Shown here: piece by piece, positions 4,401-14,432 of the stretch
Position numbering within the stretch: the first letter of the stretch is position 1
Layout of the letters: every line of letters starts with the position of its first letter
Sequence record: PX393108.1
DNA from: a phage
Length of the DNA: 64,000 nucleotides
Direction: 5' to 3' (one strand)
Notes under the pieces: generated by a model
What the model was told of the DNA's origin: nothing
The model's database searches: none
Seen by the model: only the letters and a program-made list of their open reading frames with translations
Made by a program: the position numbers and the translations under genes

Positions 4401-5393
4401 TTTGACGCGGGTAGTTCTAATATTTCTACAAATGCAACTTTTGTGGCAAATACTACTATAGGATACCGTCACAAATCTAACGGCGACGAAAGTGGCTCTG
4501 CAGCTGCTCTGTTTTATAATGATGGTACTACGTTCCACATATTATTAACAGATAAAAATACCGATACTGATAAAACTAAAGCCTCGGGTTCTTATAATAG
4601 CTTGAGACCTTTTTCTATCAATATCGCTTCAGGTAAAGTAACTATTTCAAACTCTATGAGCGTTTCTGGGGTATCAGAGTTTTGGAATGGCCTTAACATC
4701 AAAAATAATGGAAGCATTAACTTTGATAAGTCTGGTGCTAACCCGAGAAATATGAGAATATTTCATGCTGGCGATGCTTCTCGCGGTAACCGCATTGAAA
4801 TTGCAGATGAAACTAACTATATTGCTTACTTTGAAAAAACTCCAGGTGGAGCTAACCGCTTTGTAGTAAATAATGCTACTGTAGCTGGTGTTAACCAAAT
4901 GAATTCATTTGGTATTAATATCAATAACGCACTTGGTGGAAATAGTATAGCATTTGGTGATAATGATACTGGAATTAAACAATCCGGTGACGGAATTCTT
5001 GATATCATTACTAACGCCGCACGCCGAATGAGATTCCAATCGGGTGACACTTATTCTGACATGAATATAAATGCACCAAACGTTTATATTCGTTCTGATA
5101 TTCGTTTGAAATCTAATTTCAGACCTATTGAAAATGCTCTTGAAAAGGTTGAACAGCTTGATGGTTTAATCTATGATAAAGCTGACTATATAGGCGGTGA
5201 AATTGTTCAGACTGAAGCGGGTATTGTGGCTCAAACACTGCAAGATGTTTTACCAGAAGCAGTTCGTGAAGTTGAAGATATTAAGGGTAATAAAATACTC
5301 ACTGTTTCTTCTCAATCCCAGATTGCTCTTCTAGTTGAAGCTGTGAAAACACTTTCTGCTCGTGTAAAAGAACTTGAATATAAACTTATGTAA
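1437..5393 (+). CDS. 37: Long tail fibre distal subunit gp37, T2/T6-like (1318 aa) with C-terminal intramolecular-chaperone-like domain
   Basis: Large Gly/Ser/Asn/Thr-rich fibre protein directly after gene 36; length differs from T4 gp37 (1026 aa); last ~110 aa (…IYDKADYIGGEIVQTEAGIVAQTLQDVLPEAVREVEDIKGNKILTVSSQSQIALLVEAVKTLSARVKELEYKLM) resembles the auto-cleaved C-terminal chaperone domain of fibre/endosialidase proteins. Confidence 0.9.
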   Translation: MATLKQIQFKRSKTAGARPAASVLAEGELAINLKDRTIFTKDDLGNIIDLSISAGGSISGNITQTGDYLQNGTYNLNGNQFVYAGKYIEFLPKTAGNGAWANQHKNKAPIFTDLSSTTSTSEYHPLIKQRYKDGTFSVGTLVNEGSFKIHYINESGTSKYWTFRRDGGFVVDTGSLTVTDGNISASGNINSATGIVSAPRVNTKNINLSSKTFIPNNDTGYDIVSLPTWIYNPPADGSDRDTNGLNYMRKMRASNTSSIFHEIVDCRSGKPQEISWWTGVGPSSFQWAFDTSGRITAGKSISVGLPDSGTNGRYPLDSAISIGIAIGDNDTGIKWVRDGVYDLMANGISSATILNNGINSTKKLMVGYSRDSGSTWDFPNNNQAMFTARTDIDGNNNGDGQTHIGYSSNSKMYHYFRGTGRMSVSMGDGLLVEPGILDIKTGSNRVAIRADGTFDSTQRISMRTGLFLSGDDNTNALSFKAPTGVDGTKTINWDAGTRNGQNKNTVTIKAWGNSFNSTPGNRETVFEVSDSQGYYFYAQRTNPASGQTVGPINFKFNGTVETGHIVGLGNISASGTGSFGGNVTMSNGLFVQGGSSITGQVKIGGTVDALRIWNAEYGAIFRRSEASLHIIPTPKDAGESGGISNLRPLSISLNNGMVQMRHSVTLGDDSRGGNMITVDNDNKLVVITSHSRISPNYRMQLGQAAYIDAECTDAVRPAGAGSFASQNNENVRAPFYMNIDRTDTSTYVPILKQRYVQGNGCYSLGTLINNGNFRVHYHGGGDNGSSGPQTADFGWEFIKNGDFISPRDLIAGKVRFDRTGNITGGSGNFANLDTTLNRKVTTGWINYSSVSGWYKLATVTMPQGVATVQFKITGGSGFNVGIFKQATINEIVLRSGNNTPKGINGVLWQRETDAIKDIAYINTSGDEYDVYISCGTYLNRLTIEYSTSENASVVVHGLYGPTQSPVEELPVDIVKGRVFKLLNNSSGVFDAGSSNISTNATFVANTTIGYRHKSNGDESGSAAALFYNDGTTFHILLTDKNTDTDKTKASGSYNSLRPFSINIASGKVTISNSMSVSGVSEFWNGLNIKNNGSINFDKSGANPRNMRIFHAGDASRGNRIEIADETNYIAYFEKTPGGANRFVVNNATVAGVNQMNSFGININNALGGNSIAFGDNDTGIKQSGDGILDIITNAARRMRFQSGDTYSDMNINAPNVYIRSDIRLKSNFRPIENALEKVEQLDGLIYDKADYIGGEIVQTEAGIVAQTLQDVLPEAVREVEDIKGNKILTVSSQSQIALLVEAVKTLSARVKELEYKLM

Positions 5394-9767: not shown

Positions 9768-9917
9768 TTACTGCATGACTGTGATAACTGTCATGATAAC
9801 ACGTTGAATTCCGAACGCAAGAAGACCTCCTGCTACGGCTGGAACAACACCTAAACCCGCCAGTAAAATGCAACCGGATACTAATGCAGCGCCTGTAATA
9901 CCTATGAATGGACTCAT
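9768..9917 (-). CDS. Small hydrophobic peptide (49 aa), start overlaps gene 52 stop
   Basis: Hand-translated MSPFIGITGAALVSGCILLAGLGVVPAVAGGLLAFGIQRVIMTVITVMQ; ATGA overlap with gene 52 stop; ends just before the terminator hairpin. Confidence 0.35.
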   Translation of the reverse strand: MSPFIGITGAALVSGCILLAGLGVVPAVAGGLLAFGIQRVIMTVITVMQ

Positions 9918-11242
9918 TTGATTTCCTCTAAATCTTTGGTGTATTCTGTAACTACATCAGTAGTTTTCCAATATTCGTTTTCTTCTTTTTTAGCTTTAGC
10001 TTCTTCAGCAAGTTTCTTTGCTTCGTCGGAAGTCATATGAAAAATATTCATTCCGACTAGTTTATCAACATAAGAAGAATACATATCAATTTTAGAAAGT
10101 TCTTCAGTCAGTTCTTTGCGAGTTTTACCCTGTACAACGATTTCACCTGAAATTACTTTCTTAATGAAATGTGCCTTGGCAAAGGCTAAACGAAATGCCG
10201 ATTCAGTTTCTTTGATTTTGTTATCAATTCGTTTTTGGACATAAGTTTTACGAACTTCAACGAAGTCTTTAATTAAATCAACTACGTTATCGTAAACTTG
10301 TAGTTTTCCTTTCTCATTAATAACGGTAATATTCTGGGAACGACGCTCAATCAACCCGAAGTCTTTCATGATTTTTGCATGGCGTTCTTCTTCGTTATCG
10401 CTCAAGGAATATTCTTTACGGAATTTAACTTTGAAGCCAAAACCATGCTCACCGCAAGCATCATCCCACGTAATGAAGCCTTTATCTTCAAGCGGGTCTA
10501 AGATTTTACTCACATAAGTTTCACGATCATACTTATACGGAATCTCAGTGATATTCATTTGAGTTCGTGAGGTAAACTTGTACGTTCCACGAATTTCATA
10601 TTGACCGTCAATTTCAACGACTTCACCGCGAAATTCTGGGAATTCTACCTTCGGTTTAGTTACTTTCTTTCCTTGAAGAGCTTGTAGTACAGCTTTCTTG
10701 ACAGAAGAAACGCTATGAGGAAGAATGTAAGTTGCATAACCAGTTGCAATACCGGAAACACCATTAAGAAGAACGGTAGGAATAATAGGCAAATAGAAAG
10801 CAGGCGGAATGTGTTCTTTATCTTGATGTACCGGAGCATATTCAGTATCTTTATATACGTTATAGAAATTTTTACTTACACGAGCAAAAATATAACGACT
10901 TGCCGCTGCTTTTTGAACAGTACGAGAACCAAAGTTTCCTTGACCATCTAACAAAGGAAAGTTATTATTCCAAGTATTAGCCATCAAAGCCCCCGCATCT
11001 TGCGCAGAGTTTTCGCCATGATGATATCCAAGGTCCGCTACACCGCCTGCAATAGAAGCGAGTTTGTGAAACTTATCTTTATTTCCTCGTGCCAAATCAA
11101 GAGCTCGAGCGATAACAAATCGTTGAACTGGCTTAAATCCATCAATCATATTTGGAATAGCACGATTTTCAACCGTGTACATAGCATAAGCCAGTGCTTC
11201 ATTATCAATGATACTTTTTAAATCGCGATTATTCAGTTGCAT
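9914..11242 (-). CDS. 52: DNA topoisomerase II medium subunit gp52
   Basis: 442 aa; gyrase-A/ParC-like motifs; T4 gp52 length and position. Confidence 0.95.
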   Translation of the reverse strand: MQLNNRDLKSIIDNEALAYAMYTVENRAIPNMIDGFKPVQRFVIARALDLARGNKDKFHKLASIAGGVADLGYHHGENSAQDAGALMANTWNNNFPLLDGQGNFGSRTVQKAAASRYIFARVSKNFYNVYKDTEYAPVHQDKEHIPPAFYLPIIPTVLLNGVSGIATGYATYILPHSVSSVKKAVLQALQGKKVTKPKVEFPEFRGEVVEIDGQYEIRGTYKFTSRTQMNITEIPYKYDRETYVSKILDPLEDKGFITWDDACGEHGFGFKVKFRKEYSLSDNEEERHAKIMKDFGLIERRSQNITVINEKGKLQVYDNVVDLIKDFVEVRKTYVQKRIDNKIKETESAFRLAFAKAHFIKKVISGEIVVQGKTRKELTEELSKIDMYSSYVDKLVGMNIFHMTSDEAKKLAEEAKAKKEENEYWKTTDVVTEYTKDLEEIK

Positions 11243-11246
11243 AAAT

Positions 11247-11387
11247 TTACCATACTAGTGAATGTAGTGCCATAATAACATCAGAAATGAAAAGCACGAC
11301 TTGAATTAATCCGAACATTACTCCATAATATAGTGCTATCAATAAAATAGCAAGGGCTAATAAATAGCCCAAGATTTTCTTAATCAT
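11247..11387 (-). CDS. Small hydrophobic peptide (46 aa) immediately upstream of gene 52
   Basis: Hand-translated MIKKILGYLLALAILLIALYYGVMFGLIQVVLFISDVIMALHSLVW; overlaps the ac stop; single TM helix. Confidence 0.35.
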   Translation of the reverse strand: MIKKILGYLLALAILLIALYYGVMFGLIQVVLFISDVIMALHSLVW

Positions 11388-11538
11388 TAGTAGATAACAA
11401 CACAAATGTTAAATATGCACACATACCCTGAGCTAAAGCTTGTGAAAACACACTGCTAGCATCGATGCAGATAGTTAAAACACATGCTACTATCCAACAA
11501 ATAAATGAAATAACTCCTAATAATTTTGCAATATTCAT
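11380..11538 (-). CDS. ac: Small membrane protein, positional equivalent of T4 ac (acriflavine resistance)
   Basis: Hand-translated 52 aa MNIAKLLGVISFICWIVACVLTICIDASSVFSQALAQGMCAYLTFVLLSTND; lies between stp and 52 as ac does in T4. Confidence 0.5.
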   Translation of the reverse strand: MNIAKLLGVISFICWIVACVLTICIDASSVFSQALAQGMCAYLTFVLLSTND

Positions 11539-11545
11539 ATTTTCC

Positions 11546-11626
11546 TCACTGGCGTCCGAAGACGCCTTTAGTTTTAAGATTGTTACGATAGAACTGCATC
11601 ACGTGTTCGTTATGGAAATTACTCAT
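11546..11626 (-). CDS. stp: Stp peptide (26 aa)
   Basis: Hand translation gives [26 protein letters not shown], identical to the T4 Stp peptide as I recall it; start overlaps the ndd stop (TAATG). Confidence 0.8.
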
Positions 11627-12084
11627 TAGTATGCCTGCAAAACAAATTTAAAGTTATCAGCCAACATACGGTTCATTTCTTCAAGCGTTTGATACTCAGA
11701 ATGATGATTACGAGTAAACGCCAAAGCTAACTGACCTTTTCCAAATCCCGTCGTCAGAGGTTTCATCTTAGAAGCAGGTAAATAAAATACCGTGTATGTA
11801 ACATTGTTATTTGCAATAGTACGCGCAAGCTGAGACCGACGCTGGCGAATATGACTTAGAACTGCACTGAATCCTTGCTTAGAACGCTGATTACCTACAT
11901 AAAATCGTGCAGACACACATGGATTACTAAATAGACGACCATCTAATTTACTTACTAAAAAGTAAAATCCAGGGTTAGACAAAATGTCTTTATGCGGAGT
12001 TCCAAAAACCCATTCACCGCCCTTGATTGTACCAATAACAGTTGCGCCTGCATTATTCAGATCAGTAACAGTCATATATTTCAT
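11626..12084 (-). CDS. ndd: Nucleoid disruption protein Ndd
   Basis: ORF-track 168-aa frame trimmed to internal Met ([18 protein letters not shown]...), giving about 151 aa matching T4 Ndd. Confidence 0.9.
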
Positions 12085-12144
12085 TTTAATTTCCTCTAAA
12101 TTATTTTCTACTCCAAGGCCGCATGAATACACACGGCCGATAAA

Positions 12145-12360
12145 TTAATCGTCGCAGTCGACGCTCAATTCCCAGAACTCTTCTACGGTATAAGTTTCAG
12201 TATCATTTTCAATACAGAAACGTTCATTGCTGTTATTTGCTAAAGTAGCGTTAACTGTCATTTTCTCGCTAGTGCTCTTAAGAGGTGAAATACGAATTAA
12301 CTGATCACCATTATCTAAACAGAAAATTTCACCAACTTTTACATCTTTAAAAATTTTCAT
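12145..12360 (-). CDS. Hypothetical protein (71 aa), ndd.1-like position
   Basis: ORF upstream of ndd on the same strand. Confidence 0.55.
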   Translation of the reverse strand: MKIFKDVKVGEIFCLDNGDQLIRISPLKSTSEKMTVNATLANNSNERFCIENDTETYTVEEFWELSVDCDD

Positions 12361-12475
12361 AATTCACCTCAAGGAGTATAAAATCCAAATGCAGTTGTTG
12401 ACCATCCCATCCAATATGGGAAATTTGCGCCAATATAAAACATAAGAATATAAAACCAACCGCTCAGCAAATTCA

Positions 12476-12673
12476 TCATTTTACACCATTCCAAATTGTT
12501 TCAACCACAGATTTTAAGCCATTTTGGTGAATATCCATTCCGACAACTGCCATCAAATAGATTCCAACTACAACTGAACCTAAGGCGAAAATCAACATGA
12601 AAATGAATAAAGCTGGAAAAATATTATCGAAAAACCATTCAATAAATGTAAAAGCACTACGTTTACGCTTCAT
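12476..12673 (-). CDS. Small membrane protein (about 65 aa)
   Basis: ORF trimmed to MKRKRSAF...; two hydrophobic segments. Confidence 0.45.
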   Translation of the reverse strand: MKRKRSAFTFIEWFFDNIFPALFIFMLIFALGSVVVGIYLMAVVGMDIHQNGLKSVVETIWNGVK

Positions 12674-12680
12674 ATTTTCC

Positions 12681-12794
12681 TCACATAAATCCAAAGTAAG
12701 CGTTTAATACATCAATCATTAAAACGATTGGGAATATACTCAAAACTACTAATATTATAACTACATTCCATATAGCTTTAACAATCTTTTTCAT
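12681..12794 (-). CDS. Small membrane peptide (37 aa)
   Basis: ORF-track frame extends upstream through an early promoter; real start taken as MKKIVKAIWNVVIILVVLSIFPIVLMIDVLNAYFGFM just downstream of that promoter. Confidence 0.4.
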   Translation of the reverse strand: MKKIVKAIWNVVIILVVLSIFPIVLMIDVLNAYFGFM

Positions 12795-12814
12795 TTTCTG
12801 TTCCTCCGTAGTTG

Positions 12815-12870
12815 ATAGGGTAATAATACCACAGAGGAACAGTCTTGTAAACAACTTTTTTAAAAATATT
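12815..12870 (-). promoter_or_regulatory. T4-type early promoter (-35 GTTTACA, -10 TATTAT)
   Basis: Minus strand AAAAAAGTTGTTTACAAGACTGTTCCTCTGTGGTATTATTACC. Confidence 0.55.
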
Positions 12871-13037
12871 CGTAATAAATGTGAATACCAACTACTACCG
12901 CTGAAACTTGTGCAACCCACCACGCACAAGCAATAAGTACAGAATTCAAAATTTTCATAATAACCTCATCACAAAAGTAAATACTAAACAAATCAATGGA
13001 ATACTAATTAACCAAACAAAACACCACCACAATGAAC

Positions 13038-13310
13038 TCATAGTTCAATCTCAGCGATTTTCATTTCATTACTATTAATAGCCGCTTTAAGACTATCTGA
13101 AAGAATTACATTCCAGTGGTCATTCATATGACCATTAACTAAACGTGTAATTTCTTCGGGAGTTGAAAAATAAGGCGTATCAGACTCCCAATGCGATAGT
13201 CCCAAGCGAGTATAAATCATACCTTCATCATCGCTAGAATATTCAACTGACACAAACTCATCAGTTATTTTATGTTTAGCGTAATAAAATTTAAATTTCA
13301 TTTTACTCAA
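13038..13310 (-). CDS. Hypothetical protein (90 aa)
   Basis: ORF with 4-nt overlap to the upstream gene. Confidence 0.55.
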   Translation of the reverse strand: MSKMKFKFYYAKHKITDEFVSVEYSSDDEGMIYTRLGLSHWESDTPYFSTPEEITRLVNGHMNDHWNVILSDSLKAAINSNEMKIAEIEL

Positions 13311-13513
13311 TAATCCGCTAAAAGATCGACGATTGCATCACGAAGACACTTATTCGCAATACGCTTAAGAGCAATTTCAGTTTCTGGAGCATTTTGAATA
13401 ATCATTGAATTCAATTCAGCCTCAGCAAACTGAAGTTCTTTAACTAATTCAGCTTTATATTTTCCTTGCCCTTTCTTAGCTTTTGCTCGTTTTAATTCAG
13501 CTGTAGTAAACAT
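13307..13513 (-). CDS. Hypothetical protein (68 aa)
   Basis: ORF-track frame trimmed to Met after the early promoter (MFTTAELKRAKAKKGQ...). Confidence 0.5.
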   Translation of the reverse strand: MFTTAELKRAKAKKGQGKYKAELVKELQFAEAELNSMIIQNAPETEIALKRIANKCLRDAIVDLLADY

Positions 13514-13544
13514 TTTGTTCTCCAAATCCGTATCAGTTGATAGT

Positions 13545-13595
13545 TGTATAGTACCACAGTCCTTGTGGTATGTAAACCGTTTTGTGAAAATTTTT
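13545..13595 (-). promoter_or_regulatory. T4-type early promoter (-35 TTTACA, -10 TACTAT) with conserved leader
   Basis: Minus strand TTCACAAAACGGTTTACATACCACAAGGACTGTGGTACTATACAACTATCAACTGATACGGATTTGGAGAAC. Confidence 0.55.
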
Positions 13596-14151
13596 AAATG
13601 GAAAGATACCATCCGTTGTAGTTGCTTTTTCTTACAACCTTACGAAGGTCTTCTCTATCACCGATGAACTTCGGAGTGTACTGGATGACACCTGGATGAA
13701 TTTCTTTAGTGTTGAATATAATTATACAGTCAGCGACCTGATGATTCAGAATGGGCCCTAGATTTATTCCAGAACCGTATGGATACTCTCCGCTGCATCC
13801 GGTTGTTACCGAAATCCAGCGTGAGTCAGTTTGGTGTGTTTTGACTTCTACACGAAGCCCGCAATATCTTGGATGCGCCAATACATCCCATGCATATGTA
13901 TACGGGTCATTAACATCCTCTTGGCCTTTGTTAACATACCCGCTCAACCAATCTGCTACAAAAAACTCTGCATACACAGCGATACGGCATCTTTCGATGA
14001 CTTCTGCTTTATCCTGATTAGGATTTTGTTTTAAAGAGTATCTTGCTGTATCAGCAATTTTGACCTTCATTTCACTAGTCAAGTCATTGTTCGATAGGGT
14101 AAATGTCGGAATCTGAAATAGTCTCTGTAAACCCGGATTCGTTTTCTGCAT
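13594..14151 (-). CDS. denB: Endonuclease IV DenB
   Basis: 185 aa; length and position between ndd and rIIB match T4 denB. Confidence 0.85.
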   Translation of the reverse strand: MQKTNPGLQRLFQIPTFTLSNNDLTSEMKVKIADTARYSLKQNPNQDKAEVIERCRIAVYAEFFVADWLSGYVNKGQEDVNDPYTYAWDVLAHPRYCGLRVEVKTHQTDSRWISVTTGCSGEYPYGSGINLGPILNHQVADCIIIFNTKEIHPGVIQYTPKFIGDREDLRKVVRKSNYNGWYLSI

Positions 14152-14214
14152 TGAACTTTCCTTTTACGTCGGAATCACTGATATTCATACAATAAATCAT
14201 AGTTTCCCTTAAAA

Positions 14215-14234
14215 CAAAAGGGCCGAAGCCCTTT
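14215..14234 (-). terminator. GGGC-CGAA-GCCC hairpin flanked by A/T runs; putative terminator after the rIIB-downstream ORF
   Basis: AAAGGGCCGAAGCCCTTT inverted repeat followed on the minus strand by TTTTGTTTT. Confidence 0.5.
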
Positions 14235-14237
14235 ATT

Positions 14238-14432
14238 TTATTTGAACTGTGCAATTCTTTTCTCTAAACAATCCGCGTAAGATTTCATTGAGATGAACTG
14301 CGAAAGCAACAGTTCTTGCTCAACTGCATTAACCGTTGAAAACTTTTCACTTTCTAAAAATTTGCTCAGTGCATTAATTTTGAGCATTAATTGATCGTAT
14401 TCTTCTTTTACTCGTGCTTGATAACCTAACAT
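14238..14432 (-). CDS. Hypothetical protein (64 aa) downstream of rIIB
   Basis: ORF between two stem-loops. Confidence 0.55.
   Translation of the reverse strand: MLGYQARVKEEYDQLMLKINALSKFLESEKFSTVNAVEQELLLSQFISMKSYADCLEKRIAQFK

Follow-up and report, generated by a model that had tools for sequence, protein, structure and literature searches.

We found that the micro-ORFs around stp, ac, and ndd in the window, the 64,000-nucleotide stretch of phage DNA analyzed here (PX393108.1), are, with a probability of about 0.85, genuine coding genes under purifying selection, each in its own frame. On the same reading, the block is the classical nonessential region that separates gene 52 from denB in T4-like phages, here one of the genus Tequatrovirus. 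It is a dense run of accessory genes, nine micro-genes among them, that is transcribed early, and its micro-ORFs are orthologues of the annotated T4 genes 52.1, ac, stp, ndd.2, ndd.2a (with the spurious ndd.3), ndd.4, ndd.5, and ndd.6. Since these micro-genes have long been annotated in T4, the finding is an ordinary one. The block adds no novel element, and its worth is confirmatory and curatorial: codon-level support identifies eight of the nine tiny annotated T4 ORFs here as real genes and the ninth, ndd.3, as a ghost.

Gene order and identity with T4

The order on the minus strand was 52, 52.1, ac, stp, ndd, ndd.1, ndd.2, ndd.2a, ndd.4, ndd.5, ndd.6, two extra ORFs, and denB, with the following features.

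11247..11387, minus strand: gene 52.1, 46 aa, hydrophobic; Pfam DUF7396 (PF24129), phrog_3595
11380..11538, minus strand: ac, 52-aa membrane peptide; phrog_2501, E = 3.7e-25
11546..11626, minus strand: stp, 26 aa, hydrophilic and basic; Pfam PF08133 Nuclease_act, phrog_6763
11551..11566, minus strand: hairpin GGCGUC-UUCG-GACGCC in the last stp codons, immediately 5' of the ac Shine-Dalgarno (GAGGAAAAUAUG)
11626..12084, minus strand: ndd, nucleoid disruption protein, 152 aa; context gene, not a micro-peptide
12145..12360, minus strand: ndd.1, 71 aa, acidic, soluble; context gene
12369..12479, minus strand: ndd.2, 36 aa (35 from the second ATG), uncharged; phrog_4135
12476..12673, minus strand: full-length ndd.2a, 65 aa; Pfam DUF7248 (PF23906), phrog_2401
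12681..12794, minus strand: ndd.4, 37-aa transmembrane peptide; phrog_3098, E 3.1e-21 over full length
12823..12851, minus strand: promoter-like site of sigma-70/T4-early type (TTTACA, 17 nt, TG-TATTAT), a consensus match only
12860..12958, minus strand: ndd.5, 32-aa transmembrane peptide; phrog_5011, E 3.6e-26 over full length
12955..13041, minus strand: ndd.6, 28-aa transmembrane peptide; phrog_8851, E 4.8e-16 over full length
13038-13301, minus strand: extra soluble ORF absent from T4, 87 aa; phrog_2390, RB69ORF270c family
13307-13513, minus strand: extra soluble ORF absent from T4, 68 aa; phrog_4535

The block was the same as positions 165209-166996 of the T4 genome (NC_000866) in order, strand, and spacing; the coupling signals were also the same, and the micro-genes shared 92-100% amino-acid identity. 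In contrast to T4, the window has two additional ORFs between ndd.6 and denB. Moreover, the T4 reference carries ndd.3 and a 40-aa ndd.2a where the window has one intact 65-aa ndd.2a, and this split is a 1-nt deletion present in the original reference records only. The annotated T4 ndd.4 has an N-terminal extension that is absent from the window; the true length is 37 aa, behind a GGAGG Shine-Dalgarno (SD) sequence.

Every micro-ORF matched a PHROG family (E 1e-16 to 1e-30). Three of the peptides were found in the local Pfam copy, and the scores were well above the cut-offs for Nuclease_act (Stp, 75.3 bits, cut-off 25), DUF7396 (52.1, 78.4 bits, cut-off 27), and DUF7248 (Ndd.2a, residues 6-63, 71.9 bits, cut-off 27). 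The first-pass annotation, made from the letters alone, had called such micro-proteins usually unannotated, which is not the case here: all of them are in the NC_000866 annotation and in PHROG, and three are in Pfam. Automated annotation of relatives was patchy and often loses stp, ndd.6, and 52.1, which were called in 3, 2, and 5 of 10 GenBank Tequatrovirus records, respectively. Four of the five intervals first given for further peptides were exact. The fifth, about 12944-13030, was 11 nt off and in a wrong frame that has a stop, the true ORF being ndd.6, and ndd.2 had been overlooked.

When Ac, 52.1, and ndd.2a were searched against 5.8 billion proteins, T-even phage proteins alone were returned, with no bacterial or other-phage relatives; some of the matches lay on phage-sized contigs labelled E. 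coli or Shigella. There was no Rfam match at E <= 1 in 10800-14300, and a literature search by gene name (ndd.2a, ndd.4, and similar) retrieved only papers on neurodevelopmental disorders.

Conservation of the reading frames

Related loci were collected with the Ndd query alone (5) and by gp52 alignment (47). The micro-ORFs were intact in 11-19 relatives, and their within-genus dN/dS, except for ndd.4, was 0.03-0.33, while alternative frames contained stops or had ratios of about 1 or higher, with a scattering of low exceptions. These occurred, for example, in the antisense frame sharing third positions, and such frames mostly contained stops as well. Several micro-genes had orthologues of equal length, with an SD sequence, in four other Tevenvirinae genera. 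Family HMMs applied to 69 loci detected 52.1 in 52, ndd.4 in 48, ndd.6 in 38, and ndd.2a in 33. Conservation at the amino-acid level had been named beforehand as a check on these frames, and the low ratios and intact cross-genus frames bear it out.

Gene 52.1 has the characters of its family: 44-46 aa, hydrophobic, Trp-terminated, and directly upstream of topoisomerase gene 52, which begins 4 nt downstream. Wherever it was found it occupied the same position, and its frame was intact in 19 of the 19 loci with a DNA match. The pooled ratio was 0.33 within the genus and 0.11-0.18 across genera. Amino-acid identity in Dhaka-, Gapriver-, and Mosigvirus (74-89%) was about that of gp52 (70-93%), whereas Ndd reached only 58-62%.

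The Ac-like 52-aa membrane peptide proposed at first was confirmed by its position, its phrog_2501 match, and 96% identity to T4 Ac, from which it differs by one additional Thr. The window ac is a T4-type allele, the Thr being a common insertion just before the stop. The peptide shows the family features (about 50 aa, between stp and 52.1, two hydrophobic segments, a conserved polar loop, and Gly38), its alignment has the conserved motif CW..T..E.SV.SQA.AQG, its database homologues carry PF26944, and the pooled within-genus dN/dS was 0.03. Stp also agrees with the first description: its 26 residues are 100% identical to T4 Stp, the anticodon nuclease activator of PF08133, including the activity-bearing N-terminal 18 residues that are conserved in this family of 25-29-aa peptides. 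Its dN/dS was 0.14 within the genus and 0-0.16 across genera. Stp is also the sole micro-peptide here with direct evidence of translation.

The N-terminus of Ndd.2a reads MKRKR, about residues 10-49 form a hydrophobic span, and the C-terminal GLKSVVETIWNG motif is conserved; the peptide agrees with its family (about 50-70 aa, single-pass, C-terminal GLKSVV..IWNG invariant), and the pooled within-genus ratio was 0.08. Ndd.4, Ndd.5, and Ndd.6 were syntenic between ndd.1 and denB, as was Ndd.2, which matched phrog_4135 over its full length (E 1.7e-24). In Tequatrovirus, ndd.4 had only 4 variable sites, none of them at third positions, which is too little variation for its dN/dS of 1.3 to be informative. 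The cross-genus comparison was therefore used, giving 0.10-0.40 with orthologues of 36-39 aa in Dhaka-, Gapriver-, and Karamvirus.

It is very improbable that some of the shortest ORFs (ndd.5, ndd.6, and ndd.2) are not genes but stretches left open by chance in DNA conserved for a regulatory or leader role. An open frame of 28-36 codons has a chance probability of 6-11% at this base composition, as many as 52 ORFs of 20 aa or more occur in the same 3.5 kb, ndd.5 was confined to Tequatrovirus loci, and the cross-genus ratios of ndd.6 were noisy (0.19-1.4, against 0.26 within the genus). Against this, variation was dominated by third positions both in ndd.5 (1, 1, and 9 variable sites by codon position; dN/dS 0.07) and in ndd.2 (3, 3, and 13; 0.14), and ndd.6 kept its length (28-29 aa) and motif (SSK.WC.IW..SIP.IC) in four other lineages at 40-54% identity, with orthologues in RB69, Dhaka-, and Gaprivervirus. 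The minus strand, moreover, had 10 ATG-ORFs of at least 28 aa and the plus strand 4, against 3.5 +/- 1.7 in shuffled sequences, only 2 of 1000 of which reached 10; coding density was 92%. A lone 28-codon ORF is not significant by length (P about 0.11), and the conservation evidence is therefore decisive.

Translational coupling and expression

The coupled stop/start codons noticed in the first pass are real. ATGA overlaps join the adjacent extra ORF (orfA) to ndd.6, ndd.6 to ndd.5, and ndd.2a to ndd.2, so that ndd.6 has one at each end; the ndd/stp junction is TAATG, and ac overlaps 52.1 by 8 nt. At ndd.4/ndd.2a, stp/ac, and ndd.2/ndd.1 there are gaps of 7-8 nt with GAGG overlapping the stop codon. 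Each micro-ORF has either an SD sequence upstream or coupling to its neighbor. The promoter-like site lies within the 65-nt gap upstream of ndd.4. In T4, RNA-seq places the mRNAs of these genes in the early class, and shotgun proteomics detected 0 of 9 peptides; a literature search found no ribosome-profiling study of T4 infection. In a CRISPRi-ART knock-down in a lab host, every one of these genes was scored "Not Fit", with no fitness cost.

Such an arrangement could also mean that translation itself is what matters, the micro-ORFs being coupling spacers that carry ribosomes along an early polycistronic mRNA, prevent Rho polarity or nuclease attack, and let ribosomes reach the downstream ndd, ac, and gene 52, with the peptides inert. 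Coupling is very tight across the block, the starts of 52.1, stp, and ndd.6 have no good SD sequence, and the silent single-gene knock-downs and undetected peptides agree with this explanation. So does the RNA hairpin within the 3' end of stp, which was retained in Tequatro-, Dhaka-, and Gaprivervirus loci and missing only in fHoEco02. Nevertheless, we consider inert spacers improbable: the amino acids are conserved beyond what open frames need, and specific polar motifs do not vary from one genus to another (GLK...WNG in ndd.2a, SIP.IC in ndd.6, LFISDVIM...W in 52.1, and T..E.SV.SQA.AQG in Ac). Specific phenotypes, moreover, result from point mutations in ac and stp (bioRxiv 10.1101/2025.06.30.662393; PMC3014915).

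Membrane peptides and host functions

The first-pass annotation had grouped the peptides it listed, Stp included, as hydrophobic. This was right for most of them: six were membrane-grade hydrophobic, with Kyte-Doolittle maxima of 2.2-3.05 in a 19-residue window. Ndd.2, rich in aromatic residues (12 of 36), fell under the transmembrane cut-off. Stp is hydrophilic (GRAVY -1.03), and, being soluble and basic, it stands outside the hydrophobic group. AF2 monomer models gave long single helices (52.1, one helix over residues 2-45, pLDDT 97; Ndd.2a, helices 5-17 and 19-64), and these models do not decide topology or between a hairpin and a single span.

Database labels place ndd.2, ndd.2a, ndd.5, and ndd.6 in the outer membrane or periplasm. 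We rejected these labels, which would call for a mature domain able to reach the periplasm or outer membrane, behind a cleavable signal peptide or a lipobox; the 28-36-aa peptides are nearly all one hydrophobic segment, and therefore no mature domain is left. As modeled, Ndd.2a combines a basic N-terminus with a single span and some 20 aa of C-terminal tail, and fits a predicted N-in inner-membrane anchor and not a soluble periplasmic protein. In Ndd.5, residues 8-11 (LIAC) resemble a lipobox, but the peptide is unlikely to be a lipoprotein, since a presequence of only 10 aa is probably too short.

AcrZ, which has 49 aa and partners AcrB, exemplifies the small regulators of the bacterial inner membrane. 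The phage peptides resemble these regulators in size and in having one or two hydrophobic helices, and the likeness is a functional analogy only: AcrZ-type regulators are bacterial, while the window peptides are phage-encoded and restricted to early infection. For Ac, the resemblance lies in the drug-accumulation phenotype, on which others based their AcrAB-TolC proposal. T4 Ac sensitizes cells to acriflavine and causes acridine accumulation in them, and a variant with the Thr insertion (as in PP01) is still sensitizing; a block of AcrAB-TolC was put forward as a proposal (bioRxiv 10.1101/2025.06.30.662393). The genetic reports are in conflict, since sa deletions, which remove ac, were called acridine-sensitive (PMC6071114), whereas delta-ac was resistant (bioRxiv 10.1101/2025.06.30.662393). 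Stp inhibits type Ic restriction (EcoprrI and EcoR124I) and thereby triggers the PrrC anticodon nuclease (PMC3014915). The early suggestion that the micro-proteins modulate membrane transporters or defence sensors fits the published work on two peptides, Stp (PMC3014915) and Ac (bioRxiv 10.1101/2025.06.30.662393). Finally, sa-delta-9, a deletion of exactly this block, lost the T4 stimulation of phospholipid synthesis, and its phage yield was halved (PMC6071114).

We tentatively propose, at somewhat less than even odds, that, during the first minutes of infection, the hydrophobic peptides become inserted in the inner membrane of the host, where they would target its membrane machines in a stoichiometric manner. 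The target of Ac would be an AcrB-type efflux pump, and that of at least one other peptide phospholipid synthesis or envelope-linked defence. Acting on such machines, the peptides would therefore be conditionally useful host-range or takeover factors.

The hydrophobic peptides might instead, like Stp, serve mainly in anti-defence or superinfection exclusion and not in modulating host transport or lipid metabolism. Their targets would then be abortive-infection systems of the membrane or the DNA of incoming phages, as with T4 Imm, Sp, and rII. Their neighbors in the accessory block (stp, denB, and rIIB), their dispensability in lab strains, and a variation in gene content between genera that is typical of arms-race loci are all consistent with such a role. 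We regard it as rather unlikely, considering that the Ac phenotype is of the transport type and that of the block deletion concerns lipids, and that the sole PADLOC match, of ndd.4 to KwaA, was at chance level (E 0.0085). This match was to a membrane segment of KwaA and was rejected.

Returning to action on host membrane machines, it seems doubtful, although conceivable, that at least one of 52.1, Ndd.2a/DUF7248, Ndd.4, and Ndd.6 is a specific effector of a particular host inner-membrane machine. Such an effector might be the factor behind the T4 stimulation of phosphatidylglycerol synthesis that sa-delta-9 lost. Another possible form is 52.1 as a membrane partner of the topoisomerase subunit gp52, to which it is translationally adjacent.

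Gene content of the 52-denB block

The block from gene 52 to denB (window 9914-14151, minus strand) follows the gene order of phage T4, and the T4 annotation (NC_000866) already includes each of its small genes. The feature is real but not new: it is the T4 micro-gene cluster, although the first-pass annotation had called such micro-proteins usually unannotated. The window itself is not T4. Its best database phages were 97.4% identical across this block and 94-95% across 24 kb, and all close matches belonged to Tequatrovirus. Unlike the window, T4 lacks both soluble ORFs between ndd.6 and denB, whose presence varies among relatives.

Genes of the block, with dN/dS (pooled Nei-Gojobori, annotated frame, within Tequatrovirus) and invariant motif
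9914-11242, minus: gene 52, 442 aa
11247-11387, minus: 52.1, 46 aa; dN/dS 0.33; LFISDVIM...W
11380-11538, minus: ac, 52 aa; 0.03; CW..T..E.SV.SQA.AQG
11546-11626, minus: stp, 26 aa; 0.14
11626-12084, minus: ndd; 0.10 (comparison gene)
12145-12360, minus: ndd.1; 0.10 (comparison gene)
12369-12479, minus: ndd.2, 36 aa; 0.14; G.N.PYW.G
12476-12673, minus: 65-aa ORF (DUF7248, full-length ndd.2a); 0.08; GLKSVV..IWNG
12681-12794, minus: ndd.4, 37 aa; KAIWN...FP...D
12860-12958, minus: ndd.5, 32 aa; 0.07
12955-13041, minus: ndd.6, 28 aa; 0.26; SSK.WC.IW..SIP.IC
13038-13301, minus: soluble ORF (orfA), 87 aa; phrog_2390, RB69ORF270c family
13307-13513, minus: soluble ORF, 68 aa; phrog_4535
13594-14151, minus: denB

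The earlier observation was mostly accurate. Four of the five intervals it had assigned to further peptides were exact ORFs; the fifth (12944-13030) lay 11 nt off and contained a stop, the true gene being ndd.6 at 12955-13041. It missed ndd.2, and it rightly took Stp to be identical to the T4 peptide. The stop/start coupling it described was also found: ATGA overlaps joined orfA/ndd.6, ndd.6/ndd.5 and ndd.2a/ndd.2, TAATG joined ndd/stp, ac and 52.1 overlapped by 8 nt, and other junctions had gaps of 7-8 nt with GAGG spanning the stop of the upstream gene. A GGCCG...CGGCC hairpin sits in the 60 nt that separate ndd.1 from ndd (12085-12144, minus), and the 3' end of ndd.1 has a terminator-like stem (12150-12163, minus).

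Amino-acid constraint on the micro-ORFs

By length, the shortest ORFs are unremarkable singly (P ~0.11 for a 28-codon open frame at this base composition; 3.5 kb hold 52 ORFs of 20 aa or more). As a set they are remarkable: the minus strand carried 10 ATG-ORFs of 28 aa or longer, compared with 4 on the plus strand and 3.5 +/- 1.7 in shuffles, and coding density was 92%. We collected 68 related loci: ten annotated Tequatrovirus records (T4 among them), 52 loci from IMG/VR, and the other-genus phages IME08 and CLB_P2 (Dhakavirus), P896 (Gaprivervirus), RB69 (Mosigvirus), CC31 (Karamvirus) and RB49 (Krischvirus). Within Tequatrovirus, each micro-ORF was intact in 11-19 loci, and dN/dS was 0.03-0.33; ndd.4 had four variable sites only, too few to inform the ratio. 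The five alternative frames mostly contained stops or gave dN/dS near or above 1; the few low values, most consistent in the antisense frame with shared third positions, came mostly from stop-bearing frames too.

Across genera, orthologues kept their length and Shine-Dalgarno sequence, with synonymous sites saturated. The gene 52.1 remained at 46 aa (74-89% identity, dN/dS 0.11-0.18) and was still recognisable in CC31; ndd.4 had 36-39 aa (dN/dS 0.10-0.40), ndd.6 28-29 aa (dN/dS noisy) and stp 25-26 aa, and the P896 member of the 65-aa family had 68 aa. An iterated HMM search of all 69 loci matched 52.1 (52 loci), ndd.4 (48), ndd.6 (38), the 65-aa family (33), ndd.2 (30), ac and stp (29 each) and ndd.5 (21, all within Tequatrovirus). 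In the alignments, hydrophobic cores were flanked by invariant polar or aromatic motifs. A lack of amino-acid conservation of the frames in relatives had been named beforehand as possible refutation; since frames and motifs are clearly conserved at the amino-acid level, that objection fails. The micro-ORFs might also be pure coupling spacers or chance ORFs, but both readings are disfavoured because the constraint acts on amino acids.

The position of 52.1 was constant, directly upstream of and abutting gene 52 (loci L016-L068 and window 11247-11387). Its cross-genus conservation is about that of gp52 (70-93% over the N-terminal 200 aa) and far above that of Ndd (58-62%). Among distant loci in which no homology to 52.1 was detectable, most had small transmembrane ORFs in the same place.

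In T4, ndd.3 and a 40-aa ndd.2a result from a single G missing after ATGAA in the 65-aa ORF (T4 locus 4433-4629 versus window 12476-12673). At 99% identity or more, only 4 of 467 matching records had this version, three of them, among the matches listed, being the original T4 reference entries X75802, AF158101 and NC_000866. Re-sequenced T4 stocks (HM137666, KJ477684, KJ477685, OZ209023, OZ209057) carry the extra base, as do all other relatives among the matches listed, with the ORF intact. The real gene here is the 65-aa DUF7248 protein; because these stocks retain the ORF, ndd.3, a PHROG singleton in a published table (PMC11879866 supplement), is probably a ghost gene. The conserved ndd.4 start is an MKK codon with a GGAGG Shine-Dalgarno sequence, giving 37 aa (window 12681-12809; T4 locus 4637-4765); the MEEQK extension of the annotated T4 start (MEEQKM..., 42 aa) is unconserved. 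Micro-genes can fuse: Shigella phage Sf25 encodes a chimera in which the ndd.4 N-terminus runs in frame into the ndd.2a C-terminus, and a 2-nt indel in loci L003 and L024 lengthens ndd.6 to 83 aa.

Membrane character and possible role

The peptides had been described as hydrophobic, which held for 52.1, ac, the 65-aa protein, ndd.4, ndd.5 and ndd.6 (Kyte-Doolittle 19-residue maxima 2.2-3.05), not for ndd.2 (peak 1.17; no charged residues, 12 of 36 aromatic) or the basic, hydrophilic Stp. AlphaFold2 predicted a single helix for 52.1 (residues 2-45, pLDDT 97) and helices 5-17 and 19-64 for the 65-aa protein (pLDDT 80.5), as monomers, which leave topology beyond reach; under the positive-inside rule, the basic N-termini (MKRKR, MKK) would favour an N-in orientation. 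Neither of the labels given in databases, 'outer membrane protein' and 'periplasmic protein', is supported, because the hydrophobic segment leaves no mature domain.

The analysis establishes identity, coding status and hydrophobic character. We infer that the peptides would insert into the inner membrane minutes after infection and there bind host membrane machines, on the basis of the phenotype of Ac, the effect of a block deletion on lipids and the persistence of transmembrane micro-ORFs, one to three of which occupy the interval from ndd to gene 52 in most Tevenvirinae-type loci examined, even where sequence similarity is gone. The deletion sa-delta-9 removes exactly 52.1 to denB and yields about 50% of wild type; the boost that T4 otherwise gives to phospholipid synthesis, with its phosphatidylglycerol rise, is lost (PMC6071114). 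In T4 time-course omics, 52.1, ac, stp, ndd.2, ndd.2a, ndd.3, ndd.4, ndd.5 and ndd.6 were early transcripts whose proteins were undetected, while Ndd and Ndd.1 were detected (PMC9697503 Table S2). CRISPRi-ART knock-downs scored every block gene 'Not Fit' and gene 52 'Fit' (PMC11879866 supplement).

Ac and Stp

The suggestion that such peptides modulate transporters or defence sensors agrees with published work for two members only, Stp and Ac (PMC3014915; bioRxiv 10.1101/2025.06.30.662393), and that the micro-peptides are anti-defence factors is a live alternative to the binding of membrane machines. Stp inhibits type Ic restriction enzymes, leading to PrrC activation; its N-terminal 18 residues are critical and its last 8 codons dispensable (PMC3014915). 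The latter fits a GGCGUC-UUCG-GACGCC hairpin in the stp 3' end (GVFGR codons; 11551-11566, minus), immediately ahead of the ac Shine-Dalgarno sequence; the hairpin is kept across three genera and lost only in fHoEco02, where the Stp C-terminus differs too.

The window Ac is 96% identical to that of T4, with one added Thr three codons ahead of the stop, a common and phenotypically silent variant (bioRxiv 10.1101/2025.06.30.662393). According to the same preprint, E. coli expressing Ac becomes more sensitive to acriflavine and to ampicillin, ac deletion makes T4 acriflavine-resistant, and Ac is proposed to block AcrAB-TolC. The sa deletions, which remove ac, were described as acridine-sensitive (PMC6071114), the opposite of the clean deletion; if both reports are true, another block gene might counteract acridine uptake. 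Two ac allelic types exist, T4-type and RB51-type (~42% identical), and they stand side by side in tandem in ADUt, PST and phiC600P9 (L008 1181-1505, L009, L010); loci L014 and L015 also bear on the two types.
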